The notes below the pieces were generated by a model. The model searched no databases. It saw nothing but the letters and a program-made list of their open reading frames with translations, and was not told where the DNA came from. Below are positions 5,723 to 63,182 of a stretch of 64,000 nucleotides of DNA, in pieces. A program made the position numbers and the translations under genes. Source of the DNA: a virus (taxonomy: Duplodnaviria; Heunggongvirae; Uroviricota; Caudoviricetes); the IMG/VR virus record IMGVR_UViG_3300028585_000002, positions 15,337-79,336 of that record; one strand, written 5' to 3'. Each line of letters begins with the position of its first letter. Within the stretch, counting starts at the first letter, position 1.

Positions 5723-5746
5723 TTGGCAGTAGAGGGGATTGGCATC

Positions 5747-6496
5747 ATGAATGAAACGCTCAGCTTCAAAGAAAACATCGGCCTGGTCCACTTCCACGCC
5801 AAGCGTGGGTTTGCAAGGGCACAGCAGGCGGGCGTTCCCCTCTCCTACGACGACATGTTCCAGGAGGCGTCGATGGCCTTCGTGATGGCAGCGCGCGGGT
5901 TCGATCCCGAGGCGGGCGTCAAGTTCTCGGCGTATTACACCCGCGCGGCGCACAGCCACTTCAGCAAGGCGATCGGCAAGTTCACCGGCGTGAAGCGCCT
6001 GACCGACGAAATGAAGGTCGAGATCGCCGAGCGCGACGAGGAGAACGCACGTCGCCGCGCAGCAGCGGAGCCGGAGCTGCCGAGCCTGCACTACGCGATC
6101 GCCTCGCGCAACTTCTCGGACATGGAAGCGGCCGGCGACGAGGGCGGTGATCCGTTCGAATCGTCGATCGCGTCCAACAGCCAGTCGCCCGAGGAGATCA
6201 TCGAAACGAAGCAGCTAATGGACCGGGCGATGGCGAACCTGTCGCCCCTGGCGAACCTGATGGTGGACTGGCTGCGCGACCCACCCCCGGAGCTGGTGAG
6301 CGAACTGCGCAGCCAGCGCGCGCACGCCGCTGTTGCCGACGAAGTTGGCGTGCATGCGCGCGCCATGAAGGAAGGACTTTCGCTCATCACCGTCAAGAAG
6401 TTCCTGACGATGCTGGGTGGCGCCACCGAGCGCGAACTGTCGATGGCGGAATGCGAACTGCGCAACGCCGTCAAGTATATCGAGGAAGCAGCATGA
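5747..6496 (+). CDS. sigma-70 family RNA polymerase sigma factor (regions 2 and 4 only; ECF/group-4-like size)
   Basis: Region 2-like DDMFQEASMAFVMAARGFDPEAGVKFSAYYTRAAHSHFSKAI. C-terminal HTH-like segment. Start MNETLSF at 5747. Confidence 0.55.
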   Translation: MNETLSFKENIGLVHFHAKRGFARAQQAGVPLSYDDMFQEASMAFVMAARGFDPEAGVKFSAYYTRAAHSHFSKAIGKFTGVKRLTDEMKVEIAERDEENARRRAAAEPELPSLHYAIASRNFSDMEAAGDEGGDPFESSIASNSQSPEEIIETKQLMDRAMANLSPLANLMVDWLRDPPPELVSELRSQRAHAAVADEVGVHARAMKEGLSLITVKKFLTMLGGATERELSMAECELRNAVKYIEEAA

Positions 6497-12208: not shown

Positions 12209-12274
12209 TGAATGCCCGATGACGAAAGTCTGACGGCACCTAACTTACTGACAAACCAACCCACGAAAGAACTC

Positions 12275-13108
12275 ATGGACAAGAACAAACTGATGGAAAT
12301 GATGCTGGCGAAGAAGCAGTCCCTCAAAAAGACTGAAAAAACCGCCAAACTGGAAGCTGGCGAGAACCGTGTTGTGATCCTGCCGGGCTGGCGCGCCGAA
12401 GACCCAACGTGGTATCACGACTTCGGCCAGCACTTCATCAAGGACGAAGCCGATCAGATCAAGGCTGTGTACCTCTGCACGCACGCCACGTTCGAAAAAG
12501 ACTGCGCTGTCTGCTCGGCCCTGGCCGCTGCAACCCGCGCTGCCGCCGACGACTCGCTCACCGAAGTGCTGGGCAAGGCAAAGGCGAGCCGCACCGTTCT
12601 GGTCAATGCCCTGATGCTCGACTCGAAAGAGCCGAACACCCCGGTCATCCTGGAACTGAAGCGCGGCATCTTCGAACAGATCCTGGACATCGTGATCGAG
12701 TACGAAGGCGCACCGCTGGACCCGAACGCTGCGATCATCCTGAAGCTGTCCCGCGACGGCAAGGGCCTGAACACCAAGTACAGCGCCATGCCGACTGCCA
12801 AGACCCTCAAGGTTCCGGCTGCCGTGCTGGGCAAGCTGCACAACCTGGATGACTACGTCAAACAGGAATCGGAAGAACAGGAACGTCGCGCGATCGGCGC
12901 CATCAACAGCGTTGCAGGCGTGCTGCCGGCACCGGGCACTGGCGCAGATGCACCGCGCACTCGCCCATCGGCACTGAGCGCACCGAAAGGCGCGTCGGCT
13001 GACTTCGAAGACGTGCCTGACTTCGACGCCACCCCGATCGCATCGGGTGCTTCCGATCCGTCGCTGGATTCGGACATTGACGCGCTTCTCGGCGAACTTC
13101 CCGAGTAA
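12275..13108 (+). CDS. T4 gp32-like single-stranded DNA-binding protein
   Basis: Zn-binding arrangement H-x15-C-x9-C-x2-C (QHF...YLCTHATFEKDCAVC) as in gp32 His64/Cys77/Cys87/Cys90; basic N-terminus. Start chosen downstream of the promoter motif; 12212 possible. Confidence 0.5.
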   Translation: MDKNKLMEMMLAKKQSLKKTEKTAKLEAGENRVVILPGWRAEDPTWYHDFGQHFIKDEADQIKAVYLCTHATFEKDCAVCSALAAATRAAADDSLTEVLGKAKASRTVLVNALMLDSKEPNTPVILELKRGIFEQILDIVIEYEGAPLDPNAAIILKLSRDGKGLNTKYSAMPTAKTLKVPAAVLGKLHNLDDYVKQESEEQERRAIGAINSVAGVLPAPGTGADAPRTRPSALSAPKGASADFEDVPDFDATPIASGASDPSLDSDIDALLGELPE

Positions 13109-38335: not shown

Positions 38336-38667
38336 CCATTTGTCAACCGATTTTATTCATATGCTTCATTGACCAAGGTCCGGTTTTGGCCGATTGCGGA
38401 AGTTCACCGCCGTTAGTGTAACTCATAAAAATCAGGGTTCCTGCAGCGCGGCATCGTCCTGTCGCCTGCCCTTCCCCGCCTGGTGGATCGCTTTGCGTGC
38501 CTGGCCTCAACCCGTAAAGTTCATACATCGACAACGCAGCAATAAAGCGAGATCGACGCAGCAAGGGGGTCGACAGTAGCCAAGCAAACAGCTTCTACCG
38601 CCGCAAACCGGTCTGCATACTACAGTCATCGCGACGTGCGAATTAACCAACAAATGGAGTTTTGAAC

Positions 38668-39720
38668 ATGGCAAAGAAAACCACCCCGGCAGCGGCAGAT
38701 ACCACCTTCAACATGACCGCCATGGTCGACACGGCAGCCGCAGTGGCGGGTCCGGAAGATGCGGTGTTGGCCGGCCTACTCGAGGAGCTGGAAGGGAACG
38801 ACCCGACCGTCGGCGCCGCTGCTGCTGACGAGATCATCGAGCCGGAAGCGATCGACGCTGCCGACGCTTTGATCGACTCGGTTAGTGCGGAAGCGGCCGA
38901 CACTGTCGCCGCTCATGACACCGACGCCGGTCTGACGGTGTGGAATAAGGCGATGGGCAAGAGCGACGACGCCGATGAGCTGAACCTGGAAGCCCTGCTC
39001 GACGACGTGACCGCGACTGCGGCACCGGTCGACGCAGCTGCCGCCGACAACGATCTGGTCGACGACCTGCTGGACGACGTAGCCCAGCAAGCGGCCAGCA
39101 TCGAGGCGAAGCAGAAGCTCTACGCCGAACAAGACGCGCCCGAAGTCGGCAGTGGTGACGATGCTCCGCAGACCGATGCCGACGCTGTCGCGGCCGACAC
39201 CAAGAAGCCACGCAAGAAGAAGGATGCGGCGCCGAAGGAACCGAAGGCTACCCGCCCGACCAGCGTCACCCATAAGCCGGGCGACCTGCTGCTGGCCAAG
39301 CTGGGCACGAAGGCTGGCGACTACCTGATCTTCTCTGCCGACCCTGCCGAGAATGAGACCAAGGTGGCTGACTTCATCGCCAGGATGAACGACCGCGAGG
39401 CAATTGCCGAGAAGGTCCGCGAGAAGATCATCATGCTCATGACCTGGATGGCCGGTGGCCGCACCGGCGCGCTCAACGAAGTGCTGCGCCGCACGTTCAC
39501 GGTGCTGTCGAAGGACGGGACGCTCACCTCCGGCGACAAGGGCAACCTGCAACAGGATCTCCTGGCCAAGCCGTACAGCATGGGCACCGCACGCAGCCAG
39601 GCGAACCAAATGTTCATGGCGCTGCCCGAGCTGGGCCTGACGCTCAAGAGCAAGGGCGCCATGACCCCGAACCCGGACAGCATCATGCTGCAAGCCATCA
39701 ACGCTCAGCTGGGCCTGTAA
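38668..39720 (+). CDS. hypothetical protein with acidic Ala/Asp-rich N-terminal region and conserved C-terminal domain
   Basis: ORF-track ORF; start MAKKTTP after GGAGttttgaac. Confidence 0.45.
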   Translation: MAKKTTPAAADTTFNMTAMVDTAAAVAGPEDAVLAGLLEELEGNDPTVGAAAADEIIEPEAIDAADALIDSVSAEAADTVAAHDTDAGLTVWNKAMGKSDDADELNLEALLDDVTATAAPVDAAAADNDLVDDLLDDVAQQAASIEAKQKLYAEQDAPEVGSGDDAPQTDADAVAADTKKPRKKKDAAPKEPKATRPTSVTHKPGDLLLAKLGTKAGDYLIFSADPAENETKVADFIARMNDREAIAEKVREKIIMLMTWMAGGRTGALNEVLRRTFTVLSKDGTLTSGDKGNLQQDLLAKPYSMGTARSQANQMFMALPELGLTLKSKGAMTPNPDSIMLQAINAQLGL

Positions 39721-40616: not shown

Positions 40617-40677
40617 CGCCCTTCCCTTGCGCCCATTCGGGCGCCTTTTCTTGTCTACAAAACAGCCTTGGCCAGTA

Positions 40678-40770
40678 GGTGGATCGTTTTGAGTAGATGC
40701 GGTGGATCGTTTTGAGTAGTGACTGGTGGATCGTTTTGAGTAGCGTGGCCAGGTGGATCGTTTTGAGTAA
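40678..40770 (+). repeat. Iteron array I: 4 direct repeats of GGTGGATCGTTTTGAGTAG at 23-27 bp spacing
   Basis: Copies at 40678, 40701, 40725 and 40752, all in the same orientation. Confidence 0.8.
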
Positions 40771-40792
40771 AAGGCGAATTAGGCCTGCCTTT

Positions 40793-40820
40793 AAGGTTAA
40801 AGAGGGTTAAAGATGGTTAA
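40793..40820 (+). repeat. AT-rich tandem AGrGGTTAA x3 between the iteron arrays (candidate DNA-unwinding element)
   Basis: AAGGTTAAAGAGGGTTAAAGATGGTTAA. Confidence 0.45.
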
Positions 40821-40876
40821 CGGATGTGGACAACGACGCTAACTCCTTGATCTTTCTTGCGTTCTGGGAACACTCC

Positions 40877-41010
40877 GGTGGATCGTTTTGAGCAAACGGC
40901 GTTTCGAATTGAGCAAACGGTGTTTCGAATTGTGCCGGAGGTGGATCGTTTTGAGTTCCTATTCATCCTGCGGTGGATCGTTTTGACCTGTAGGTGGATC
41001 GTTTTGAGCT
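40877..41010 (+). repeat. Iteron array II: 4 further GGTGGATCGTTTTGA(G/C) copies plus a 21-bp direct repeat GAGCAAACGG(C/T)GTTTCGAATT x2 (40890-40931)
   Basis: Copies at 40877, 40940, 40972 and 40993; the last two overlap the 3' end of the Rep gene. Confidence 0.8.
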
Positions 41011-41995
41011 GGTGCGCCGGCCACAGCGCGCGTTACCTTCACAAGTTTTCCGCTACTGCGCGAATCGACCAATTCGCCTTTCGACAAAACGCCTGCACTC
41101 ACCAATTCAGCCAGGTAGCGCCGCATTACGCGCGGCGTATCCTTCTTGCTGATCTCCAGCCCCAGCATTTTTGCTAGTGACTCGGCGAGCACGTCATTAG
41201 GCTGACGGTGACTGCCGAAATATGACTGCAGGCGCCGTGCGCCTGCGGAAAGACCCTTTCTCGCTTCGAAGTCCACCAGTGTGAGATAGGACTCGGCGAA
41301 AAGTGTGACGAGTTTTTTGTTCAGCTTAATTTCCCAGGACAGATTGCCTTGGGGGATGCCATTTACGTCAGGTGATCCTCCAGTGAAGACCGGATCGCCA
41401 TCAATTAGCGACATCATCATGCCGCTCATTTTGTCGTTCGCCGTGAGCAGGCCCAGCTCCTCGCGCCGTTGGTATTCCTCCAGCTCGGCATACAGCTCAT
41501 CGAGCACTTCGGGGGCCGCTCCCGCCTCTCGAGCGCGTTCGCAGGCGAGGGCCTTGGTCAGCCGGCCGGAATAGACGGTAATGACGCCGCCCTTCAGGCG
41601 CTCGATGGTGCGGTAGATCTCGGTGTAGTAGTGCTGCATCTGCCGCTTGCCGGTCAGCTTGCATAGCTGGGCGTTGGAGACGCACACTGTCAGGTCGTCC
41701 ACCGACAGCTTGCGCGCCGCATGCACGAGGGCCAGGAACACGTCCTCGTCGTTGCTGCGCAGTTCTTCGCCTGTATAGGTCACGGCGCCGGTGCCTAAAA
41801 CGAATAGCTTCTCGTTCTTGTGCAGTCGTCGAGGCTTGCGCACATCGGCGCATGAGAACAGGGCCGAGCGCGCCAGCTCGTTCGCAATGGCTCGACGCTC
41901 CTCTGGCCAGAAGGCCATTTGGACCGGCGTGAACTTGCTCATTTGCGCAGCGGCGACGCGCTGCTTCAATTTGTCGGTGAGTGCCTTGGTTGCCA
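40959..41995 (-). CDS. iteron-type replication initiator protein (plasmid TrfA-like Rep)
   Basis: ~345 aa minus-strand gene directly abutting 8 iterons; C-terminus QNDPPTGQNDPP is the translation of two iterons. Family assignment by architecture and recalled similarity only. Start taken as MATKALTDKL. Confidence 0.5.
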
Positions 41996-42065
41996 TAAGA
42001 GTGCGCGGCTGAAAAAGAAAGCCAAGGATACGCCATGCGCACCTTACCGGCAAACTATCATTAGA

Positions 42066-50272: not shown

Positions 50273-50752
50273 ATGGCCAAGAAAGCACCCATCCACTACA
50301 TCGCATTCCCGGACAAGAGCTGGATCGACGCCGAGGGATATGCCAACTACCCAAGCGAGCACCGGATCAAACTAGACGGCTGCGCCTGCATGCTCGAGAA
50401 GGACTTCAAGAGCGGCGCCTACCGGGACAACAAGTTCTGGAACCCGACACAGATCGGAAAGAGGATCAGCCTTCCGAAGATGCACTTCATCGTATGGAGA
50501 GTGAAGTACCAGACCGGCAGGACATCGGTAGCGGCCCAGGACAAGGACCAGTTCACGGCGTACCTCAAGAACGACCCTACCCACTTCGAAGGCGCGGCCT
50601 GTGTGCGAGCAGTGTCGATCGGACAGGCGGAAGCAATCGCCCAGCAGGACAGCGTCTGGAACCCGGTAGACGAACAGATCATCGAGCAGGCCCAGAAGAA
50701 GAGCAGGCAAGAGAGAGCCGCAAGGCGCAGTCACTACCCGGAAGTCTGGTGA
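50273..50752 (+). CDS. hypothetical protein
   Basis: RBS AGAGGAAcaccggaATG. Confidence 0.4.
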   Translation: MAKKAPIHYIAFPDKSWIDAEGYANYPSEHRIKLDGCACMLEKDFKSGAYRDNKFWNPTQIGKRISLPKMHFIVWRVKYQTGRTSVAAQDKDQFTAYLKNDPTHFEGAACVRAVSIGQAEAIAQQDSVWNPVDEQIIEQAQKKSRQERAARRSHYPEVW

Positions 50753-51155
50753 AACCGTATAGACACAAACAAGGCAATGCGGAATACCTCAAATACGGAA
50801 ATCTGCAAATCCTCAAAACCGTATAAAGGAAAGACATCGGAGACAAACAAGACGAGGAACAACGGAAAGACGAACAACCGGGAGGGAGAAGACGACACCT
50901 ATGCCTACGATCACATAGACATAGATGCCTGTAGGAAGTGAGCCTGACACACGTCACACAACACGTCGGACATCACAGAGCGGCACATGTAAGTTTTGCG
51001 TGGCTACGTATAGCACTCATCAATCCACGCCATTCCCCGGCAATCCTCATACCGCAGGCCTGATACCACGGCGCCAGGCCGCTCCCATAGAGGAAACGAC
51101 CAGGCCAGGCGACCTCCAGGCCATCGAACCGGCCACCAGGAGCAGGCCTGGCTCG

Positions 51156-51250
51156 TATAAGGGCGTCGCCAAGGATCTATAAGGGCACCTTACACATCGG
51201 ATCGAAATGTATAAGGTCGCATCCTGACTATACCCCGGAAATCTATAAGG
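51156..51250. repeat. Four direct copies of (C/T)NTATAAGG(G/T)C at 51156, 51178, 51210 and 51244 inside a 630-bp noncoding region
   Basis: Read directly; related TATAAAGG at 50822. Confidence 0.5.
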
Positions 51251-51387
51251 TCGAGGTTCTGCCACGGAGAAAACGATCTTTTGGATCGCCTTGGCCGCCC
51301 GACCAGGAGAGCTGCACCGAGCCACACGCACGCCTGACCTGGCTCTCTACCATACACATATCGACAACACAGCACAGGGAGCAAATC

Positions 51388-51723
51388 ATGATCACGCAAG
51401 CGCAGAAAGAGGTCTTACAGGTGGCCGGTTACTCGGTCGAAGACATGGGCGCTGAATGGGGCAAGGACTTCGCAGGGCAGTACCGCTGGATGAACGACAC
51501 GCACGAGCCAGGAGGCGGTGACGGGTTCGGCGTGATCCAGTACAGCATCGAGGCGGCATGGGACGACGCGCTGCAGTTCCAGGAGCAGGCTCTGGGCATC
51601 CCGGTGTTCGTGCCCGAGGACGACTGCATCAACGGCATTCACTCCTGGACGAGCGAAGTGGGCCTGCTGCCACCTGAGACCAAGTGCGCCTACTGCAACG
51701 AGCTGTACGGCCACCCGGACTGA
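51388..51723 (+). CDS. hypothetical protein
   Basis: RBS GGGAGcaaatcATG. Confidence 0.4.
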   Translation: MITQAQKEVLQVAGYSVEDMGAEWGKDFAGQYRWMNDTHEPGGGDGFGVIQYSIEAAWDDALQFQEQALGIPVFVPEDDCINGIHSWTSEVGLLPPETKCAYCNELYGHPD

Positions 51724-52200
51724 TCGCCAGCACCAGGCGCGCGCTGTGCAGGACCGGCAGCGGCGCCGAAGGGCTATTCCGGCTTTCACGCAAGACGTGA
51801 GCTTCGGCGACGGTCTATTCCGGATGCATCGTGCGCGCACGCCGCCGCAGGCGCTCCGGTCTGGCCCAGGATCTTCCAAGGATCCGCCTGGCCAGCGCCG
51901 ACCACCTCCCAGGCGACGCCTCGGCAGCTGCAGGCAACCTGGTCGGCGAGATGCACCGGTCCGGTCACACGCCTGCATGTGACCGTCATACTGCTAACTC
52001 ACCACTGACTTAAAGGGCAGCACCATGAGCACCACCATCAATTTCGTCGACTACGAAGAAGGAACCGACGAGTTCAACACGCAGATCATGCATGAGGGCG
52101 TCGAGATCGCAGCGATGATCCCCGCCTGCTTGATCCCGAAGCTGACCGGCGAGAGCGGTGAGCCTACCGAGTTCATCGGGCGCACGTTCCTGGTGTAAGG

Positions 52201-52335
52201 GCAGGGTGGGCAGGCGCCCACCAGGCCGCAGGCCACCTTCAGGCCTAGGCAAGTCCGACAGGCCATCAGGCTGCAGGCCGGCAGCAGGCCAGGCCAAGGC
52301 GTATCCGAGGCCACCAGGCCAGGCGAGCGGACCGC
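52201..52335. repeat. Degenerate microsatellite-like array of about 15 CAGGCC / CCAGGCC units
   Basis: Read directly; a similar short array lies at 51095-51150. Confidence 0.45.
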
Positions 52336-52450
52336 CCTGAAGGCGAACATCACAGCGCCACCCAGCGCCAGCCACATGCCTGTTTCTGGTTGAGAACATG
52401 ACGTTACTGCAGCACGACGCAGCAGCGACCAACCTCACAGAGAGAGCATC

Positions 52451-52642
52451 ATGAACGTCACCATCGCCGCCATCGCCCGCAACCTGAACCAGCGCACCGC
52501 CCGCGCATCGGCAGCGTTATTACCCTTTGCGATCACCTCGCACCTGGTCCTGGACAACGACACCGGCGCCGTCGTCGGCACGCAGCGCAGCATGACGGTC
52601 AAGGGCCGCCTGTTCAACACCTCGATCACGCCAGTGCAGTAA
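52451..52642 (+). CDS. hypothetical small protein
   Basis: RBS GAGAGAGcatcATG; weak. Confidence 0.25.
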   Translation: MNVTIAAIARNLNQRTARASAALLPFAITSHLVLDNDTGAVVGTQRSMTVKGRLFNTSITPVQ

Positions 52643-53035
52643 TGAGCGCCGACCTGATCACCCAGTACCGGGCCAAGCTGCGACGCATGGGACGCTGGAT
52701 GCGACCACGCTACCTGCGCAATCAGGGCGTCGCCTTCAATGACGCCTACTTCATCATCTTCGGGCGCGCGCCACGCTTATAGCGACGCTGCCTGACCGAG
52801 CACACAAGAGGGCGCCTGCGGGCGTCCTTTCTCTTGCGCCACACCTTGCCGAGGATGCGCCAAGGCGACGCCGTGGACCAGCGCCAGCACGCCCACCACG
52901 AGAGCAGGACGGCACCAGGGGCGCCAGCTTCGGCGACGGTATTTTGGCGTTTTCTTTGCTCGCCAGCTTCGGCGACGAAACTTTGGGGCTTTCTCCGGGT
53001 TCGCTCGCCGAGGATGCGCCGGGCCGCCTGTCCGG

Positions 53036-53105
53036 CCCAGGAATGCGCCTGCACCTCGCCATGGCGAAAACCGACCCAGGAATGCGCCTGCATCCCGCCA
53101 TGGCG
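53036..53105. repeat. Tandem ~31-bp repeat CCCAGGAATGCGCCTGCA(C/T)C(T/C)CGCCATGGCG x2
   Basis: Read directly; the same region has GAGGATGCGCC x2 and CAGCTTCGGCGACG x2 (a third copy is at 51797). Confidence 0.6.
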
Positions 53106-53225
53106 CAACTGAATAACTGTGCAGGCGGGCGCGCACGCGACTACAGGTCCGATCAGGGTCCGTCAAGCGATCCGCTGGAATACAACACAAAATCTCACGC
53201 AAAAATAATTCACGCAAACCCTTGT

Positions 53226-53250
53226 TAAGTCAGTCGTGACTGACTATAAT
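53226..53250 (+). promoter_or_regulatory. Recurrent cassette TAAGTCAGtcgTGACTGACTATAAT upstream of the AT-rich gene (about 150-nt leader)
   Basis: Read directly from the sequence. Confidence 0.55.
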
Positions 53251-53398
53251 TACTACATCGAATCACACAACGCTGATTCAAAAGCAGGTAGCAGCAAAGC
53301 TCTTTAACAATTTAGCGTGTCAAGTAATAGGGCAAAGTCCCGCAGATGAAACGACACAAAACACAATTTCAATTCACTACATATTAAGAGGTTACAAA

Positions 53399-54070
53399 AT
53401 GGGTAAAGCAATGAAAGCATCGACGATCGTCAACAAACTCGCAGCGTCGGTATCGAACCGGGTTCAATTATTAGTTGACGCGGGCGAACACGTCGCAAGC
53501 GAATTCAAAAAGATCAACGAACTGTATCAAGCTGATGGTAAGCATCGCGGTTCGTTTGAACGTGCAGTCGAAACGGTGAAAGATCAGATTGATTTTGATC
53601 TCTTACTGAAAATCATCGGTAAAGCAAAGCAAGATGGTGCGAACGATAGCAACTACGTGCAAGCGAAAGTGATCGAGAAAATCAACAAACTGATTTTCGC
53701 ACTTGCGAATAAAGACCTGCGTGCTACCGATAACCATACTCGCTCGCTCATGGTCAATGCGATGCTGAACGGGAAACTGTCGAGCAAAGCAGCGTTTGCA
53801 ACGCTGGTTAAGGTCGAATGGGGTGACGAAATCAGCGAAATGCTGCGCGAGCGTAACAACTACACAGCAGGGACGGGCAGCACGCAACTGTCGAGCACGA
53901 AAGAAACAATGCGCATTCTCGGTCTGAGCGCTAACGCGAAGGGCACGAAAAACGCTGATTTTACTTTCACCGAAGAAGGGCAAGCGCTGTTCTGTGAGCG
54001 CTTCGAAAAGATCGCAGCGCTTGTGCAAAGCGCTGAACAGATCGAAGAAGAACTGAGCACTGAAGAATAA
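53399..54070 (+). CDS. hypothetical protein encoded by an atypical low-GC (about 48%) gene with AAA/GAA-biased codon usage
   Basis: RBS AAGAGGttacaaaATG; codon usage differs sharply from flanking genes (Lys AAA, Glu GAA rather than AAG/GAG); stop TAA is part of a motif copy, followed by a hairpin. Confidence 0.55.
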   Translation: MGKAMKASTIVNKLAASVSNRVQLLVDAGEHVASEFKKINELYQADGKHRGSFERAVETVKDQIDFDLLLKIIGKAKQDGANDSNYVQAKVIEKINKLIFALANKDLRATDNHTRSLMVNAMLNGKLSSKAAFATLVKVEWGDEISEMLRERNNYTAGTGSTQLSSTKETMRILGLSANAKGTKNADFTFTEEGQALFCERFEKIAALVQSAEQIEEELSTEE

Positions 54071-54084
54071 GTCACAAGTGAGTT

Positions 54085-54106
54085 AGCAAGGGCAAGCGCC
54101 CTTGCT
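54085..54106 (+). terminator. Hairpin AGCAAGGGCaagcGCCCTTGCT after the AT-rich gene
   Basis: Perfect 9-bp stem; weak U-tract. Confidence 0.45.
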
Positions 54107-54456
54107 ACTCTCAACATACAAGGGCATGACATGCAAAGCGAATATCTGAAGCAAGAGAGAGCGGGCAAGGGTAGCGCGCTTATGGTCGCACTAGCACTAG
54201 GGTTCTGTGCGCTTGATGTCGCATTGATTGCGCGCTACCTGTAAAAGATAGTCGGGCGCGCGTCGAGCGCCCAAAGGTCGAAGTCCTAGAAAAAACGTCG
54301 ACCCTCGTAGGCCCTGCCTTCCTCAACTTCCGGGTCGGAACACCCCTTCCTTATATTTCCGGGGCCGGCCGAAACGTCCTATCCTTATACTTCCCCGCCA
54401 ATGGCCCCGGCACCCAATTCCCCAAGTCCCGGCGTCCCAATTCCCCTATCCCCGAT

Positions 54457-54873
54457 TCAAACGTTGCATTCCCGGCTGCCGGCGAGCCAGCGCTGGACCC
54501 CGGCCGCATACCTGGCAGCAGGCTGGGCAGTCGAAATGAGCACTTCCGTGGATTGCTCGCCCTGCGCCTTCAGGTCGATGACCGTCAGGGTCTGGGCGCC
54601 CAGACCGCCATGGAGCGTGGTGGTGATCGTGCCCGACTGGAGGTCCGTGAACAGATCGCCCTGGACGACCGACGACGCCGTGATCATGCCCGCCTGCTCG
54701 CAAGCTCGCTGGCGTTCCAGGATCGCGCGATAGGCAGCCTGGTAGTTCTGGGGCAGGGTGAACGACGCTTTGTGATCTGGCGACGTGTTGCGCAGCTCTG
54801 TGGGCGTCACCGCGCAGCCAGTGAGCGATACGAGCAGACCCGCGAGGGTGAGGTACATGGACTTCTTGAGCAT
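54457..54873 (-). CDS. lipoprotein of unknown function
   Basis: MLKKSMYLTLAGLLVSLTGC lipobox; RBS GGAGAAcatccgATG on the minus strand. Confidence 0.45.
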   Translation of the reverse strand: MLKKSMYLTLAGLLVSLTGCAVTPTELRNTSPDHKASFTLPQNYQAAYRAILERQRACEQAGMITASSVVQGDLFTDLQSGTITTTLHGGLGAQTLTVIDLKAQGEQSTEVLISTAQPAARYAAGVQRWLAGSRECNV

Positions 54874-55017
54874 CGGATGTTCTCCGTGTAGTTGATGCGA
54901 GATTCTACCTTGCCGAGCAGCAAGAACAAAGGCGCCAGCCCTTGCCAAACCGGCAAAACTCAAATACGATTCGCCTTATTACCGGATTACCGTAAATCCG
55001 CTTTTGAGGAGACCCTG

Positions 55018-55650
55018 TTGAAAGTCATCGCATTCCTGAATCAGAAGGGCGGCGTCGGAAAGACCACGCTGGCCGTTGGCATTGCCACCTTCCTCTCCCG
55101 CCTGGGCCACCGCGTTCTGCTCATCGACGCCGACCCCCAAGGCAGTGCCCTGGACTGGGCGGCTGCGCGCGCTGGCGATCCCATGTTCCCAGTAGTGGGT
55201 CTGCCGCGCGCGACCATCCACCGTGAGATTGACCAGATCGGCGCCGACTACGACTACGTGGTCATTGACGGCCCGCCGCGCGTGACGGACCTGGCCCGCA
55301 GCGCCATCATGGCCGCCCACCTGGTCGTGGTGCCGGTACAGCCTTCGCCGTACGACGTGTGGGCCGCCGAGGAGATCATCAAGCTGATCGAGGAAGCGCG
55401 CATCTACAAGGAAAGCCTCAAAGCTGTGTTTGTGGTGAATCGCAAAATCGCAAATACGGCGATCGGTCGGGACGTGGGGGAGATTTTGAACCAGTACGCA
55501 CTGCCAACCCTGGCCGCGACAGTCACCCAGCGCGTCATCTTTGCCGAGGCAGCTGCGGAGGGCAAGGCGGTCTTTGAGATCGACCCGGAAGGTCCGGCAA
55601 CCCTGGAGATGGCCGAGCTGACGGCCGAGATCGAGAAGGTGCTGGGATGA
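55018..55650 (+). CDS. parA: ParA/ParF-type partition ATPase (small type Ib ParA)
   Basis: Deviant Walker A NQKGGVGKTT; LLIDADPQGS; ~210 aa. TTG start after GAGGAG (only in-frame ATG is far upstream at 54892). Upstream TTACCGgaTTACCG repeats. Confidence 0.75.
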   Translation: MKVIAFLNQKGGVGKTTLAVGIATFLSRLGHRVLLIDADPQGSALDWAAARAGDPMFPVVGLPRATIHREIDQIGADYDYVVIDGPPRVTDLARSAIMAAHLVVVPVQPSPYDVWAAEEIIKLIEEARIYKESLKAVFVVNRKIANTAIGRDVGEILNQYALPTLAATVTQRVIFAEAAAEGKAVFEIDPEGPATLEMAELTAEIEKVLG

Positions 55651-55928
55651 ACAAGAAGATCCAATTTGGCCCTCGACCAGGGCACGGCGCGGCCCCTGCG
55701 CCAGACCCGGAAGCGTGGATCCGGGACCGGGGTGGCGTCGACGAAGCTGCAGCGCCGGCACCGGCGCCAGAACCTGAAGCGCCTGCTGAGCCGACCAAGC
55801 GCTTGACGTTCGACATCCCGGCGAGCCTGCACGCCGCGGTCAAGTCGACTTGCGCCATGGAGGGTCGGAAGATGAACGAGGAGATCATCAAGCTGCTCGA
55901 GGCCCGGTTCAGGCCAAAGCAGTCGTGA
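55647..55928 (+). CDS. ParG-like ribbon-helix-helix partition protein (centromere-binding partner of ParA)
   Basis: ATGA overlap with parA; Pro/Ala-rich flexible N-terminus; C-terminal KRLTFDIPASLHAAVKSTCAMEGRKMNEEIIKLLE RHH-like. Confidence 0.45.
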   Translation: MNKKIQFGPRPGHGAAPAPDPEAWIRDRGGVDEAAAPAPAPEPEAPAEPTKRLTFDIPASLHAAVKSTCAMEGRKMNEEIIKLLEARFRPKQS

Positions 55929-55963
55929 TATGCTCTAGTTAATACTTTCACAAGGAGATTGTC

Positions 55964-56386
55964 GTGAGCGGACACTACAAGGAAGCGCTGGGCTGGATCA
56001 AGAAGAACCCCGGCACCGGCGGCGCCGGCAGTCTGGCCAAGATGGTTTTGTCGCTCTACAACAGCGAGTGCGGCTTCGCCTTCAGCGAGTGCGTCGGCAA
56101 TCTCGACGGCAATCTCACCGCCCTATGCATCAAAATGTGCGAAGACTACTCGCGCGATGGCGAGACCGAGGAGCTACGTCAGGTGGGCAAGGAGCTGGCC
56201 GATAGCCTGTACCCGCGCCTGTGGGAGCAGGGAGAGGCCATGAACAGGGCGCGGCAGCAGCTGCAGGCGAGGTGGGATGGCGAGCGGAGTCGTCAGCTGG
56301 AGGAAGAACGGGAAGAAAATCGCGCAGACGACAAGATCATCGAACAGCACGACATTCTTCGTGGAACCTACCGCGGACCTTACTGA
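55964..56386 (+). CDS. hypothetical protein (GTG start)
   Basis: RBS GGAGAttgtcGTG. Confidence 0.35.
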   Translation: MSGHYKEALGWIKKNPGTGGAGSLAKMVLSLYNSECGFAFSECVGNLDGNLTALCIKMCEDYSRDGETEELRQVGKELADSLYPRLWEQGEAMNRARQQLQARWDGERSRQLEEEREENRADDKIIEQHDILRGTYRGPY

Positions 56387-60728: not shown

Positions 60729-62471
60729 TCAGGCGGCCAGCTTCACCTTCTGGGGAAAGCCCATCGACGCCAGGTCGAAGTCGCAACCGTTCTCGTAGAT
60801 GAACCGTTCGAAGCCTGGCGTGCCTTTGATGATTTCCTGGCGTTGTTTGGCGTGGCCAACCAGGTAGTCGTTGAAGGCGTCGGCAAAGTCCGTGACGTAG
60901 CAGACGTTCGGGCCGACCTTCTTGGCGCGCAGCCCGCGACCGATGCGCTGACGTAGCGCCACCTCTGCCTTGCCACCACCGGCGAGGAAAACATGGCCCA
61001 CGGCCGGCACGTCCACACCCACATCAAGGATGGTGGTCCCGATAAGCACGTCGATCATGCCGGCGGACAGCTTCTTCAATGCGCGCTTGCGTCCCTCCTG
61101 GTCGTCTTCGCCCCGGATGAACTCGACGCGCAGCCCAACCTCACGCATGGCCGCCTCCAATACCTCTCCGTGACGGGTCTGCTGGATCAGCACCATTGAC
61201 GTGAGACCGTGGTCAGCCATGCGCCGGCACTCGGTCACGATGATCTCGTTGCGGTGCTCATTGTCCACGATGCCCAGACGGTATGCCGACTGCCAGCCGG
61301 TGCCGCGCGCCAGCTTGGCGGGCTTCTGCCGGAGCGGGATGAACTTGAAGTGCGGCTGGGCCAGGATGCCGCGGTCGATCAGCATCTGCTCGGTGATCTT
61401 GATGGCGATCGGGCCGGAGCACGCCATCAGGCGCATGTTCGATTCTTCGTCGCCCTTCATGAACGGGGTGGCCGTCAGCGCCAGGCGGTAATGGGCGTTT
61501 TTGCAGTGGCGCAGGATCTCGTAGTAGCTGTTGCCTGACGCCTCATGCGCTTCCTCGAGGATGACCAGGCCGAAGCGCTCGAGCAAGGCGATCGTGCGCG
61601 CGCGCTCGCGCATGTGGGTCGATACCTTCACCGCGGCGTCGGCGCGCATGCTCTCGGCCAGCTTCTTGCGCTCGGCGGTCTGACGCGCTTCGAACACCTT
61701 CAGCTTCTCCTTGCGCGCGGCCAGCGTGCCGCCCAGCGCCAGCAACTGGGTCTCGTAGGCCTTGTATTCCTTCAGTTCCTTCTTCACCCGCGCATCCATC
61801 ATCTTTTCCAGCTCGCCGTCGACGGTCTTTTCCTCGAGGCGCGCGATCAGGGTCTGGACCATCCCGACGCACATCTTCTTGACCGCCTGGCGGCCGTCGG
61901 CCGTGGTGTGCCCGAACTGGCCGTCGCCCAGAACCGAGACCGCCGTGCCCATTTCTTCGAAGGCGTCTTTCATCTGGTACATCAGGATGCCGCGCGTGGT
62001 CAGGAACAGGGTCGGCAGGTTGATCGAGGCGAAGGCCATGCGCGCGATCCGGCTCTTGCCGCCGCCGGTGGCCACCTGGGCGATGATCTGGCCGTGCTTG
62101 CGCAGACGCTTGACCACCTCCGGCTGGTAGTCGTAGCGCGGGTCGTAGCCGAACGAGTCGATCTCGGGCAGCTCGGGGCCTTGCGGCTCGGGCAGGGCCT
62201 TACGCGCGTGGCGAATCTGGTAGCCCTGCTGACGCAGCTTCGCTGAGACGTAATGGACGAAGCCGGCGGGGAAGGTGCCCAGCTTGAAATCGAGGAAGGA
62301 CGAGCGGCCGTCCCAGTTGCCGCGCTTGAAGGCGATGCTGTGTTCGGCGCCGCCGACGGCGTACGACAGGATGTCCTGGACCGCCAGCTTAACCTCGCGG
62401 CTCGGCTCATGCAGTTTGGCGACGGTGGCGTTACTTGCGATGGTGATTGTGAGGCTCATTAGGCTTGCCAA
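60729..62471 (-). CDS. superfamily-2 DEAH-type DNA helicase with unknown ~100-aa N-terminal domain and a coiled-coil insertion
   Basis: Motif I ATGGGKS, motif II ILEEAHE, motif III TATP, motif VI QRIGRGLR. Confidence 0.75.
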   Translation of the reverse strand: MASLMSLTITIASNATVAKLHEPSREVKLAVQDILSYAVGGAEHSIAFKRGNWDGRSSFLDFKLGTFPAGFVHYVSAKLRQQGYQIRHARKALPEPQGPELPEIDSFGYDPRYDYQPEVVKRLRKHGQIIAQVATGGGKSRIARMAFASINLPTLFLTTRGILMYQMKDAFEEMGTAVSVLGDGQFGHTTADGRQAVKKMCVGMVQTLIARLEEKTVDGELEKMMDARVKKELKEYKAYETQLLALGGTLAARKEKLKVFEARQTAERKKLAESMRADAAVKVSTHMRERARTIALLERFGLVILEEAHEASGNSYYEILRHCKNAHYRLALTATPFMKGDEESNMRLMACSGPIAIKITEQMLIDRGILAQPHFKFIPLRQKPAKLARGTGWQSAYRLGIVDNEHRNEIIVTECRRMADHGLTSMVLIQQTRHGEVLEAAMREVGLRVEFIRGEDDQEGRKRALKKLSAGMIDVLIGTTILDVGVDVPAVGHVFLAGGGKAEVALRQRIGRGLRAKKVGPNVCYVTDFADAFNDYLVGHAKQRQEIIKGTPGFERFIYENGCDFDLASMGFPQKVKLAA

Positions 62472-62492
62472 GTTACTAGATTAGGAATAAAG

Positions 62493-62516
62493 TATAAGTC
62501 ACGACTGACTTACATG
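62493..62516 (+). promoter_or_regulatory. Recurrent palindrome TATAAGTCACgacTGACTTACATG
   Basis: Read directly; lies in the divergent region between the helicase and the ParB-like gene. Confidence 0.45.
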
Positions 62517-62531
62517 CAATCAATCTTAGGT

Positions 62532-63182
62532 ATGCACCAAATACTCATGCAGGAAGCGGACCCGCGGTCCTTGAAGCCGAATCCGTGGAACACGAACGTG
62601 GTCTCGCCAGACAACGAGGCAAAGATCGACGCCTCGATCAAGCGATTGGGCATGTTCAAACCGATCATCGTGCGCATCCTCCCGGATAAAACGCTGCAAA
62701 TTCTGGGCGGCGCCCACCGTCGCGATTCCGCGATCCGCTTGGGCATGTCTTCGGTCCCGGTGATGAACCTGGGCCACATCGACGACAAGAAGGCCAAGGA
62801 GATCGGCATCGTCGACAACGGTCGCTATGGCGAAGACGACACGCTGGGCCTGGCCGAGTTGCTGGACTCCCTCGGCGGCGCCGATGAACTGGCGGCCTTC
62901 ATGCCGTTCACCGACGCTGACTTCAGCTCGATCTTCGCTTCTAGCAATATATCGCTCGATGATCTTGAACTCCCGGACGACGACGGGTCAGCCCCAAGTG
63001 CCCCGGCGCCGAAGGCGGCCCAGACGCACGCCGTCATGCGCTTCAAGGTGCCGTTGGGCGACGACTCGACAATCGCCGACGCCATCGCGAAGGTCCAGAA
63101 GGAGCAGGGCTTCACCGACGAGGACATGCTGTCCAACGCCGGCAATGCCCTGGTCCACATCATCAAGCGTGCGGGGTACTGA
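62532..63182 (+). CDS. ParB/Srx-like nuclease-domain protein
   Basis: LKPNPWNTN...IIVR...ILGGAHRRDSAIRLGMSSVPV ParB N-terminal domain signature. Start uncertain (62514, 62532 or 62550). Confidence 0.55.
   Translation: MHQILMQEADPRSLKPNPWNTNVVSPDNEAKIDASIKRLGMFKPIIVRILPDKTLQILGGAHRRDSAIRLGMSSVPVMNLGHIDDKKAKEIGIVDNGRYGEDDTLGLAELLDSLGGADELAAFMPFTDADFSSIFASSNISLDDLELPDDDGSAPSAPAPKAAQTHAVMRFKVPLGDDSTIADAIAKVQKEQGFTDEDMLSNAGNALVHIIKRAGY

Follow-up and report, generated by a model that had tools for sequence, protein, structure and literature searches.

The window analysed here, a 64-kb stretch of phage DNA, carries one gene whose composition sets it apart from all the others. The locus raises the question of whether this gene is a recent import from a foreign donor, as a sequence-only reading had proposed, or an old gene of the phage whose composition has another cause. 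The coding sequence (53399-54070, + strand) encodes a protein of 223 aa and 24.6 kDa, and the coordinates and composition first given for it (GC of about 48%) were borne out. Its GC-content is 0.484 and its GC3 is 0.54, versus GC3 values of 0.68-0.93 in the other 83 called genes of the window. Scored by codon log-likelihood, it is a discrete outlier (+0.58, with all other genes at or below -0.30). The preference for AAA and GAA, which the same reading had described as unlike that of the neighbours, is real (Lys AAA 71% vs. 18% in the bulk of phage genes; Glu GAA 86% vs. 41%) and is accompanied by a similar preference for Gln CAA (78% vs. 19%). The alanine codon GCC, which makes up 43% of alanine codons in the bulk, is used for none of the 26 alanines. 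Neither the window nor ten related loci yielded a tRNA gene; within those sequences, the codon choice is therefore not explained by tRNAs of the phage.

The low GC3 is common to a unit rather than confined to one gene. Downstream co-oriented ORFs have GC3 values of 0.51-0.77. They include a small ORF of 37 aa that is probably co-transcribed with the target gene and has counterparts 3′ of the hairpin in the related loci L002 and L001 (MQSEYLKQ/MKSEYLKQ). ORFs located just upstream of the promoter mostly have GC3 values of 0.69-0.94, with the exception of a short repetitive ORF in L001 (0.49). The 1.7-kb noncoding stretch reported beside the gene resolves into two gene-free stretches of about 0.76 kb (52643-53398) and 0.65 kb (54245-54891), with small ORFs of GC3 0.84-0.89 at 52025-52198 and 52451-52642. 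The upstream gene-free gap recurs across related loci.

The comparisons below are based on 14 related loci carrying orthologues of 89% down to 40% amino acid identity, which make 15 copies together with the window. Thirty homologues of the protein were found (98-45% identity), and a metagenome scan contributed only four further loci. One related locus lies inside a 743-kb contig of Herbaspirillum huttiense, assembly GCA_031583705.1. The elements identified around the gene are listed in Table 1.

Table 1. Sequence elements of the predicted expression unit, in window coordinates.
Feature	Position	Strand	Basis
A-rich stretch with two direct copies of TCACGCAAA (53195-53203, 53210-53218)	53195..53218	+	Read from sequence
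Predicted sigma-70-type promoter, TTGTTA, 17-nt spacer, TATAAT	53222..53250	+	Consensus scan, 10/12 matches
Perfect 8+8 palindrome AGTCAGTC-GT-GACTGACT in promoter spacer	53228..53245		Sequence
5′-proximal stem-loop GAATCA-CACAACGC-TGATTC, boxB-like, conserved loop	53260..53279	+	Leader fold, covariation
rrn-type boxA GCTCTTTAACAA	53299..53314	+	Consensus match, comparison with E. coli rrnH
Remainder of leader, A/C-rich, largely unstructured	53315..53385	+	Fold, composition
Shine-Dalgarno sequence AAGAGG, 7 nt before ATG	53386..53391	+	Read from sequence
Motif copy TAAGTCAC-AA-GTGAGTTA overlapping the stop codon	54068..54085		Sequence
Stable 3′ hairpin AGCAAGGGC-AAGC-GCCCTTGCT	54085..54106	+	10 bp, dG -22.5 kcal/mol, z -4.6
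Small ORF, 37 aa, hydrophobic segment	54131..54244	+	GC3 0.55

The description of the gene as an autonomous promoter-leader-ORF-hairpin unit was upheld, and the signals within it are those predicted for strong expression. The promoter is the only strong sigma-70-like site revealed by the consensus scan between 51000 and 55500, and equivalent promoters occupy the same place in L001, L002, L007, L009, L010, L012 and L100. The A-rich stretch in front of it could be an UP element or a factor-binding site; a doubled CACGCAAA/TTTGCGTG motif also precedes the promoter in L001, L006, L009, L010, L015, L100, L101 and L102. The palindrome in the spacer is a variant of the phage-wide motif TAAGTCA-N4-TGACTTA, sites of which can also be written as TAAGTCAC-NN-GTGACTTA. 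The cassette promoter family of the phage has the form TAAGTCAC-N3-TGA-N2-TATAAT and does not include a -35 element. The target promoter had been taken for a perfect copy of this cassette; it differs in possessing a -35 element, in being 3 nt longer and in its perfect 8+8 palindrome.

The leader, measured from the predicted promoter, is about 142 nt long with a GC-content of 38%, in agreement with its earlier characterisation as long and AT-rich. The suggested check for RNA structure was positive for its 5′ end and negative for the leader as a whole. The 5′-proximal stem-loop is the sole stable element of the leader fold, and five of its six pairs change on both sides among seven leaders. The covariation score, for windows picked by eye, is 0.73, versus 0.19 for shuffled alignments (0/500 reach 0.73) and at most 0.10 for slid controls. 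Taken in full, the leader is no more stably folded than shuffled sequence (z +0.87), and a structured leader or riboswitch was rejected since nothing beyond the 5′ hairpin exceeds the shuffled level. A search of Rfam (E up to 1) over 50500-56000 returned no known RNA family. The Shine-Dalgarno position is occupied by AAGGGA or AAGAGG in the orthologues.

In the rRNA operons, boxA is the loading site of NusB/NusE. The window contains GCTCTTTAACAA in exact form only once, as GCTCTTTAACA at 53299-53309, and boxA with the following TTTA makes up 16 nt identical to the E. coli rrnH leader. The element is located 49 nt downstream of the predicted -10 box (the start site being predicted as well) and precedes the Shine-Dalgarno sequence by about 75 nt; it is largely unpaired in the centroid fold. 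It also agrees with the published boxA consensus GYTCTTTAANA (PMC5725501). The same consensus is found in the 16S-23S spacer of Polynucleobacter (Burkholderiales), taken as a stand-in for the phage host, where GTTCTTTAAAA follows tRNA-Ala (L021). Exact boxA sequences are present at the same position in 4 of the 15 leaders (the window, L006, L012 and L100); with the copies one base off in L010 and L101 and two bases off in L005, the total is 7/15. The other eight leaders (L001, L002, L102, L007, L009 and L013-L015) have none, including that of L002, in spite of a protein 85% identical. The element must therefore be dispensable or replaceable, and it persists in leaders of proteins that share only 40-50% identity. 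The leader boxA may recruit host Nus factors.

At the 3′ end, the sequence TAAGTCACAAGTGAGTTA begins with the TAA stop and departs from the palindromic motif of the phage by a single mismatch; the stop codon is thus indeed embedded in a motif copy, as first noticed. The same motif lies directly 3′ of the stop in L002, L005, L007, L009, L013, L014, L015 and L100. The hairpin that follows is kept in L002, L100, L101 and L102. It had been called a clean hairpin and taken for a terminator; the strong 10-bp hairpin stands, its reading as a canonical terminator does not. The hairpin is followed by ACTCTCAAC instead of a U tract, and the scan calls no + strand terminator there. Without a U tract, it is not a canonical intrinsic terminator, and its likely role is to stabilise the 3′ end of the mRNA, to stop transcription in part or to serve as a site of processing. 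The L007 orthologue has a canonical terminator.

The protein product was expected to be largely helical and to match nothing recognisable. The AlphaFold2 model (pLDDT 85) is helical, and no significant match was obtained in Pfam and none in NCBIfam, PADLOC or PDB sequences. The searches left the protein outside annotated families and connected it by HMM to two PHROGs, phrog_4202 (E 2.5e-11) and phrog_9272 (E 4.3e-08), both with function unassigned. Matches to phrog_4202 were obtained for 73 of 81 family members and matches to phrog_9272 for 63; the family comprises about 141 clusters at 50% identity. Foldseek gave no significant match for the model in the PDB, and neither the target nor any of the 81 members gave a hit in Pfam or NCBIfam, HTH and MarR profiles included. 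Fold comparison of the model indicates a MarR-like winged-helix core, the similarity spanning only 70-94 residues at 5-18% identity. The protein contains an invariant block, R-x2-Y-x2-GTGSTQLSSTKE, and the predicted recognition helix falls within the block of highest conservation. The core is basic (pI 9.1) and the C-terminal tail is acidic. The modelled fold suggests a nucleic-acid-binding winged-helix protein, most likely an abundant regulator or DNA-coating factor, rather than the host-takeover, anti-defense or superinfection-exclusion factor that the sequence-only reading had put forward as possible.

The best-surviving alternative concerns the palindromes. The protein may be a global transcription factor acting on TAAGTCA-N4-TGACTTA and regulating its own gene, either as a repressor similar to P1 C1 and produced in the lysogen, or as an activator similar to T4 MotA. 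Palindromes of the form AGTCA-N4-TGACT (with up to one mismatch) occur 23 times in the window, in intergenic positions, where 1.1 would be expected. They are found at the cassette promoters lacking a -35 element, in the spacer of the gene's own promoter and 3′ of its stop codon; in most loci the gene is flanked by the motif on both sides, and both the motif and the putative recognition helix are conserved across the clade. The spacer of L100 carries GTCAGTCA-TCTC-TGACTGAC. ParA/ParB, PIN toxins and the copy in the Herbaspirillum assembly suggest that the phage is temperate or a plasmid-prophage. However, the spacer of L101 contains an unrelated palindrome, CACGGCA-GT-TGCCGTG, in combination with the same recognition helix, and no motif copies occur in L010 and L012 (about 6.6 kb each). 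The motif may equally be an RNA hairpin at gene ends, the promoters without a -35 element could be explained by the phage's own sigma factor (5723-6496), and the pairing of protein and motif is putative. Given L101, L010 and L012, binding of the AGTCA palindrome with self-repression is a minority rival, and we consider it unlikely, though it is the strongest of the competing accounts.

The cause of the codon bias was approached through the hosts. In Massilia, Duganella and Pseudoduganella, the hosts compared, GC3 is likewise lowered in tuf and ribosomal-protein genes, with 0.53-0.67 for rplL/rplJ versus 0.86-0.91 for ordinary genes. Highly expressed host genes shift toward GCA/GCT, GAA, AAA, CGT, GGT and GTT, as the target does. 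The direction of the shift is the same for Ala, Glu, Lys, Arg, Gly and Val and opposite for Thr, Ser and Asp, where the host genes prefer the ACC, TCC and GAC codons that the target avoids. The codon-shift correlation of the target with highly expressed host genes is r = 0.08, and r = 0.45 with rplJ/rplL only. On the target, the advantage of tuf-derived codon models over the phage bulk never exceeds 0.06 bits per codon; the tuf profile of Burkholderia favours ACG, GCA and GAA and disagrees with the target on Lys and Gln. The notion that the codon usage is that of highly expressed host genes is only partly supported.

A by-product of expression is also conceivable: very heavy transcription could have driven GC-to-AT mutation, leaving a low GC3 that was never selected. 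The distribution of the bias fits this, as the whole unit 3′ of the promoter is affected, unrelated small ORFs included, and the sequence upstream is largely spared. The pattern of the bias does not. It is codon-specific rather than a uniform AT shift: AAC (86%), ATC (75%), CGC, AGC, ACG and TCG are kept, but GCC, TCC and ACC are almost eliminated. The effective number of codons (Nc) is 44, 16 below the 60 expected from GC3, and third-position A gains more than T (+0.16 and +0.11), the opposite of what deamination of non-template cytosines predicts. We regard the mutational account as improbable. Still less can be said for a function at the DNA level, in which the AT-rich unit would be kept as an easily melting site or a target of H-NS-type silencing, for instance in a prophage. 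Compared with the 61% GC genome, the promoter, the leader and the coding region are each rich in AT, and one relative is part of a bacterial genome assembly, but the pattern follows the reading frame and is specific to codons, the ORF contains no repeats or origin-like features, and the dinucleotide odds ratios (CC 0.41, GG 0.60, with CG and GC enriched) are unlike those needed for pure AT tracts.

The orthologues answer the question of recent import. The gene was found in all 15 loci and is syntenic wherever the flank read was long enough; in L001, L002 and L007, for which 10-kb flanks were available, it lies upstream of the same helicase/ParB block. The 15 copies have GC3 values of 0.47-0.73 and their neighbours about 0.75-0.9, and GCC accounts for 17 of 402 alanine codons across the copies, compared with 43-46% in the bulk. 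Synonymous divergence between copies ranges from dS 0.84 to saturation and dN/dS from 0.11 to 0.27; the gene is under purifying selection. A relic of recent transfer would have drifted to the composition of the genome over such distances, and the same codon set has been kept. The target is an old, conserved gene of the phage group, and the proposed recent acquisition does not hold. In Rhizobium phage RHEph10, the distantly related member of the family has a GC3 of 0.87, so the bias is specific to this clade, and low GC3 as a family-wide trait was rejected. When GenBank phages were searched at the near-DNA level and by tblastn, neither the region nor the protein nor the distant members P0036 and P0046 gave a match, and a candidate paralogue at 38662-39720 (phrog_3932) was dismissed as distant and not significant (E 0.15). 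That the gene is a moron lately taken from an AT-richer donor and still bearing the donor's composition is the least credible reading and largely refuted: it is a clear compositional outlier within an autonomous cassette, bordering a variable region where downstream genes differ among relatives and are often of low GC (L002 11014-13774), but every locus carries it down to 40% identity with the codon set intact, no lower-GC homologue was found outside phages, and the family is of phage type.

The explanation that we favour, with moderate confidence, is that the target has long belonged to the core genes of a clade of ~110-kb phages infecting Oxalobacteraceae (Herbaspirillum and relatives) and heads a self-contained unit built for strong and probably early expression by unmodified host RNA polymerase. 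The unit would consist of a sigma-70 promoter placed after an A-rich stretch with a doubled motif, a leader opening with a conserved stem-loop and bearing an rRNA-operon boxA in otherwise unstructured sequence, a strong Shine-Dalgarno sequence and a stable 3′ hairpin; the boxA may bring in Nus factors. Throughout the unit, A-ending Lys, Glu and Gln codons and GCA, GGT and CGT are favoured, and NCC codons and CC/GG avoided. This codon set would be maintained by selection on expression rather than left over from a foreign donor, possibly through efficient translation, weak mRNA structure or a scarcity of C-rich Rho-loading sites. The product would be a basic protein of helical fold whose winged-helix core resembles that of MarR; it would include an invariant putative recognition helix, end in an acidic tail, and presumably be made in abundance and bind nucleic acid.

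A more specific version of this explanation is put forward only tentatively. The hairpin and the rrn boxA would form a nut-like site that loads the host rRNA antitermination complex without an N-like protein, the C-poor, CC-depleted coding sequence of the unit would deny loading to Rho, and the abundant winged-helix product would act on the palindromes. A non-lambdoid phage of Betaproteobacteria would in this way drive a single, probably immediate-early, unit. A functional boxA would mean that host Nus/rrn machinery is used on a protein-coding mRNA by a phage that is not lambdoid, and would tie phage gene expression to the ribosome-synthesis apparatus of the host. More generally, compositional outliers in phage genomes need not be recent imports; here, the odd composition predates the divergence of the clade and tracks a transcription unit, not a transfer event. 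The uncharacterised phage family to which the protein belongs can be marked as a probable abundant winged-helix nucleic-acid-binding factor.

Comparison with known systems places the locus between several of them. Like phage morons, the unit is autonomous, deviates in GC and lies beside a variable region; unlike them, it is clade-wide, under purifying selection and stable in composition over saturating synonymous divergence, and is neither recent nor sporadic. The product differs from MarR, PadR and ArsR winged-helix proteins in giving no sequence-profile match, in being about 80 residues longer and in having a long loop, modelled with low confidence, ahead of the putative recognition helix as well as the acidic C-terminal tail.

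The leader resembles the rrn leaders and lambda nut sites in that a hairpin is followed by a boxA predicted to be single-stranded (at a distance of 11-24 nt) just after a predicted strong promoter, and lambda nutL and gene N in that the gene whose leader carries the element is the first of its unit. It differs from both in belonging to a protein-coding gene of a non-lambdoid phage of Betaproteobacteria, and in that boxA is missing from about half of the orthologous leaders. The order of hairpin and boxA is that of rrn and not of lambda; the lambda boxB loop differs from the loop of the target hairpin (CACAACG), no N-like protein was found for the target phage, and boxC is doubtful. E. coli suhB, likewise a protein-coding gene, carries a consensus boxA in its 5′ UTR (Baniulyte et al. 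2017, PMC5725501), although the target boxA sits well upstream of its Shine-Dalgarno sequence. The suhB boxA represses expression instead of boosting it (PMC5725501); accordingly, the effect of the target boxA could have either sign.

As regards T4 gp32, an example of the early phage proteins that bind nucleic acid, are strongly expressed and have special leaders, the protein itself is different, since gp32 adopts an OB fold and the target is predicted to be a helical winged-helix protein. The phage already has a gp32-like SSB (12212-13108), and the identification of the target as an SSB, considered in view of its acidic tail and presumed high expression, was rejected on these two grounds. The organisation of the two genes is nevertheless alike: T4 gene 32 also has its own promoter and a long, mostly unstructured leader with a structured 5′ element, combined with strong codon bias and a product ending in an acidic C-terminal tail.

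The target gene has a GC-content of 0.484 and a third-position GC (GC3) of 0.54, compared with a GC-content of ~61% for the window and GC3 values of 0.68-0.93 for its other 83 genes, called with a simple codon-model gene caller. The per-codon log-likelihood ratio is +0.58 for the target and -0.30 or lower for every other gene, with no intermediates. The composition check thus bears out the sequence-only reading of the gene as an outlier, and the codon table contains the AAA/GAA preference reported there, along with CAA (78%), GGT (54%), CGT (33%) and GAT (73%). None of the 26 alanine codons is GCC, which makes up 43% in the bulk of the other genes, and serine is encoded by AGC and TCG only. 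Most distinctive is the depletion of dinucleotides (odds ratio 0.41 for CC and 0.60 for GG), and the coding strand contains 21.7% C versus 31.4% in the bulk. With an Nc of 44 against 60 predicted from GC3 alone, the excess codon bias of the target is the second in the window. The largest belongs to the SSB gene (Nc 32 versus 50 expected; GAA accounts for 82% of Glu codons).

A protein database search yielded 30 homologues of 98-45% identity, and DNA was retrieved for 14 orthologous loci. In the three loci with 10-kb flanks (L001, L002 and the Herbaspirillum huttiense locus L007), the same minus-strand helicase and ParB are found downstream of the gene, and a gene-free gap, mostly of a few hundred nt, stands 5' of it across the loci. 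GC3 is reduced in every copy (0.47-0.73; neighbours about 0.75-0.9), and GCC is avoided in each of them, at 17 of the 402 Ala codons overall. The Herbaspirillum copy, 51% identical to the target, uses GCA at 58% versus 14% in its neighbours, GAA at 81%, CAA at 83%, CGT at 33% and no TCC. The dS of the target is 0.84 to L002, 1.58 to L001 and 1.77 to L007 and is saturated to L005, with dN/dS values of 0.11-0.27. The bias has therefore persisted through a turnover of synonymous sites, and a gene-specific force must keep it. The low GC3 and GCC avoidance of all copies, this turnover and the shared synteny leave the proposal of a foreign, recently acquired moron unsupported. The target unit belongs to the core of the clade and carries signals for strong expression, from which we infer the expression itself. 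In Rhizobium phage RHEph10, the distant family member is normal in GC3 (0.87); hence, the low GC3 is a trait of this clade's unit and not of the protein family. In the RHEph10 genome (NC_034248.1), the RefSeq frame of gp103 at 96170-97060 is apparently wrong (GC1 0.84, GC3 0.45); the phrog_4202-family homologue (HMM E 1.7e-16) corresponds to the ORF 96195-96953, in another frame with a GC3 of 0.87.

Small co-oriented ORFs just 3' of the hairpin have GC3 values of 0.51-0.77 and vary between phages; those just 5' of the promoter have values of 0.69-0.94, with the exception of one short repetitive ORF in L001 (0.49). The bias therefore follows the transcription unit. The downstream ORF set is shuffled between phages and includes a membrane peptide (MQSEYLKQ..) and MTELEQAMREF..GVWYVGGF, with low GC3 in most. 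Plain mutational GC-to-AT drift does not fit, as AAC, ATC, CGC, AGC, ACG and TCG are kept and third-position A is raised more than T. Host highly expressed genes were represented by tuf and the flanking ribosomal-protein operons of Massilia, Duganella and Pseudoduganella, where GC3 is 0.53-0.67 for rplL/rplJ and 0.72-0.74 for tuf versus 0.86-0.91 for ordinary genes. Like the target, these genes shift to GCA/GCT, GAA, AAA, CGT, GGT and GTT; however, ACC, TCC and GAC are strongly favoured in them and avoided in the target. The codon shifts correlate with r = 0.08 overall and 0.45 against rplJ/rplL only, and none of the tuf-based codon models, from 35 taxa, accounts for the target better than the phage bulk does. 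We conclude that the bias is maintained by selection on expression, translational selection being only a part of the explanation; plausible further contributions would come from weak structure of the mRNA or from avoiding C-rich sequence that loads Rho.

The AlphaFold2 model of the protein (31 sequences; pLDDT 85, pTM 0.84) is all-helical with a short beta-hairpin. Its topology is like that of MarR, with a long N-terminal helix, a helix-turn-helix, a wing and two C-terminal helices. Foldseek found nothing significant in the PDB and matched two uncharacterised phage proteins in BFVD, and a full HMMER scan yielded 141 clusters of similar length, all in phrog_4202/9272 (function unknown). The most conserved block, R152-x2-Y-x2-GTGSTQLSSTKE, reaches into the putative recognition helix, and T159 and Q163 are invariant across 81 distant family members. 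The protein has a basic core (pI 9.1) and an acidic C-terminal segment of 18 residues. The product, an uncharacterised protein that is probably winged-helix, is predicted to bind nucleic acid. An SSB role was discarded, being already filled by the gp32-like SSB.

The target promoter combines a -35 element with a spacer that holds a perfect 8+8 palindrome. It is related to the phage's cassette promoters but is not the perfect copy described in the sequence-only reading: the cassette promoters have a perfect -10 and no recognisable -35 hexamer at 17-nt spacing, and 5' of the -10 they carry one half of the phage palindrome. This palindrome, AGTCA-N4-TGACT, usually TAAGTCAC-NN-GTGACTTA, occurs in 23 copies versus 1.1 expected in the window, nearly all intergenic, and in about 1-6 copies per 10 kb of related phage contigs; it may act as a protein operator or an RNA hairpin. 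The idea that the target protein reads its extended form, TAAGTCA-N4-TGACTTA, is attractive but unproven. The abundance and intergenic placement of the motif, its retention across the clade, its overlap with the -35-less promoters and its position on both sides of the target gene favour this idea; however, L101 has the same recognition helix and a different spacer palindrome, no motif copy was seen in L010 and L012, and the cassette promoters may be explained by the phage's own sigma factor. The stop codon does begin a motif copy, with one mismatch. The clean hairpin that the sequence-only reading placed 3' of it is stable (-22.5 kcal/mol) but has no U tract and was not called by a terminator scan.

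Coordinates of features in the window and, where named, in related loci
Feature	Position (strand)	Remarks
Target ORF	53399-54070 (+)	223 aa
Target promoter	53222-53250	Sigma-70-like; TTGTTA, 17 nt, TATAAT
Cassette promoters	1893, 12186, 21570, 25438, 35762 (+); 62491-62512 (-)	TAAGTCAC-N3-TGA-N2-TATAAT
Palindrome, examples	2264, 4423, 16274, 28745, 29935, 32447, 42680, 44889, 62497	
Shuffled small ORFs	L001 10747-11421; L100 2250-2474; L102 2291-2694; L012 3749-3910	After target hairpin
CobT/CobS-like genes		
Phage sigma factor	5723-6496 (+)	Pfam Sigma70_r2, 26.4 bits vs cutoff 24; after CobT/CobS-like genes, same place as RHEph10 gp045
gp32-like SSB	12212-13108 (+)	PF08804, E 2.4e-17; cassette promoter immediately 5'
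DnaE-type polymerase; SbcC; ribonucleotide reductase		
ParA	54892-55650	
DEAD-box helicase	60729-62471 (-)	
ParB	62514-63182	
Low-GC end	1-2000	GC 40-46%, far under remaining window
Conserved non-coding block	53125-53195	..GCGCGC..CTGCGCG..CCGTCAAGCGATCCGC..AATACAACRCAAAA
Two direct-repeat pairs	52922-52994, 53035-53108	CGCCAGCTTCGGCGACG twice, CCCAGGAATGCGCCTGCAYCYCGCCATGGCG twice
Conserved non-coding element	54280-54400	AAGTCCTAGAAAAA..GGCCCTGCCTTCCTCAACTTCCG..CCTTATA..TTCCGGGG
Repeat array	40668-41016	GGTGGATCGTTTTGAG, at least 8 copies; families D3/D4/D15

The window belongs to a large phage genome, and no close DNA relative of it was found among GenBank phages. The polymerase shares 41-45% identity with those of ~110-120-kb siphophages of Rhizobium (RHEph10, B1VFA), Stenotrophomonas and Pseudomonas (nickie), and the gene order matches that of RHEph10. 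A 743-kb contig of Herbaspirillum huttiense (GCA_031583705.1, JAVLSJ010000001.1) contains, at 492-513 kb, a related element in which the helicase/ParB/thioredoxin/terminase order is the same, and another homologue was recovered from a Telluria MAG; the host thus probably belongs to the Oxalobacteraceae. The location within a bacterial contig and the ParA/ParB and PIN genes present in several relatives suggest a temperate or plasmid-prophage lifestyle.

The strongly conserved non-coding block 5' of the promoter recurs in six loci (L009, L010, L012, L014, L015 and L007) whose adjacent proteins share only about 45% identity, and has no Rfam match. The direct repeats in the GC-rich upstream gap resemble iterons, and similar GGATGCGCC / CCATGG repeats are present 5' of the L007 and RHEph10 orthologues. 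The element between the target cassette and parA, also found at L007 10820-10940 and 3' of the gene in L014 and L015, ends on the minus strand with a terminator-like hairpin and a T run (54313-54300). A small RNA is one possible identity for it, and the partition site/promoter of the ParA operon (54892-55928) another. The dense repeat array and the 3' end of the minus-strand ORF 40959-42053 (phrog_26900) overlap; the array resembles iterons and may mark a replication origin.

In the aligned upstream regions, the promoter position and a start region of the type TACATC/TTCATG are conserved. Immediately 3' of the latter is a stem-loop with the conserved loop C(A/G)(C/A)AACG(A/C), whose stem covaries, both sides having changed in 5 of 6 pairs among seven leaders. 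The covariation score, for 20-nt windows chosen by eye, is 0.73 versus 0.19 in shuffles (0 of 500 reach 0.73), and slid controls give 0.10 or less. The remainder of the leader is A/C-rich, is no more stable when folded than shuffled sequence (z +0.87) and ends with AAGAGG, 7 nt before the ATG. The boxA GCTCTTTAACAA, 11-24 nt beyond the stem-loop, is the sole exact copy in 64 kb and fits the BoxA consensus GYTCTTTAANA (Baniulyte et al., PMC5725501); with the next TTTA, it forms 16 nt identical to the E. coli rrnH leader. A Polynucleobacter rrn spacer (Burkholderiales) carries GTTCTTTAAAA 3' of tRNA-Ala, so the host order uses the same consensus. Exact copies occupy the same leader position in L100, L012 and L006, the latter two encoding proteins only 40-50% identical to the target, and near-copies are one base off in L101 and L010 and two in L005. 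The boxA is absent from 8 of the 15 leaders, including that of L002 (protein 85% identical); in L001, L002 and L102 the leader is long but of a different kind, and in five loci it is short. Judged from these leaders, boxA is inessential to the unit. Given these absences and the repression of suhB by a BoxA in its leader (PMC5725501), it may by analogy modulate rather than boost expression.

With its hairpin, boxA and open leader, the layout corresponds to that of rrn antitermination leaders, and, like lambda nutL, the element lies in the leader of the first gene of its unit. Among known kinds, the target unit resembles BoxA/nut-type leaders and winged-helix phage regulators.
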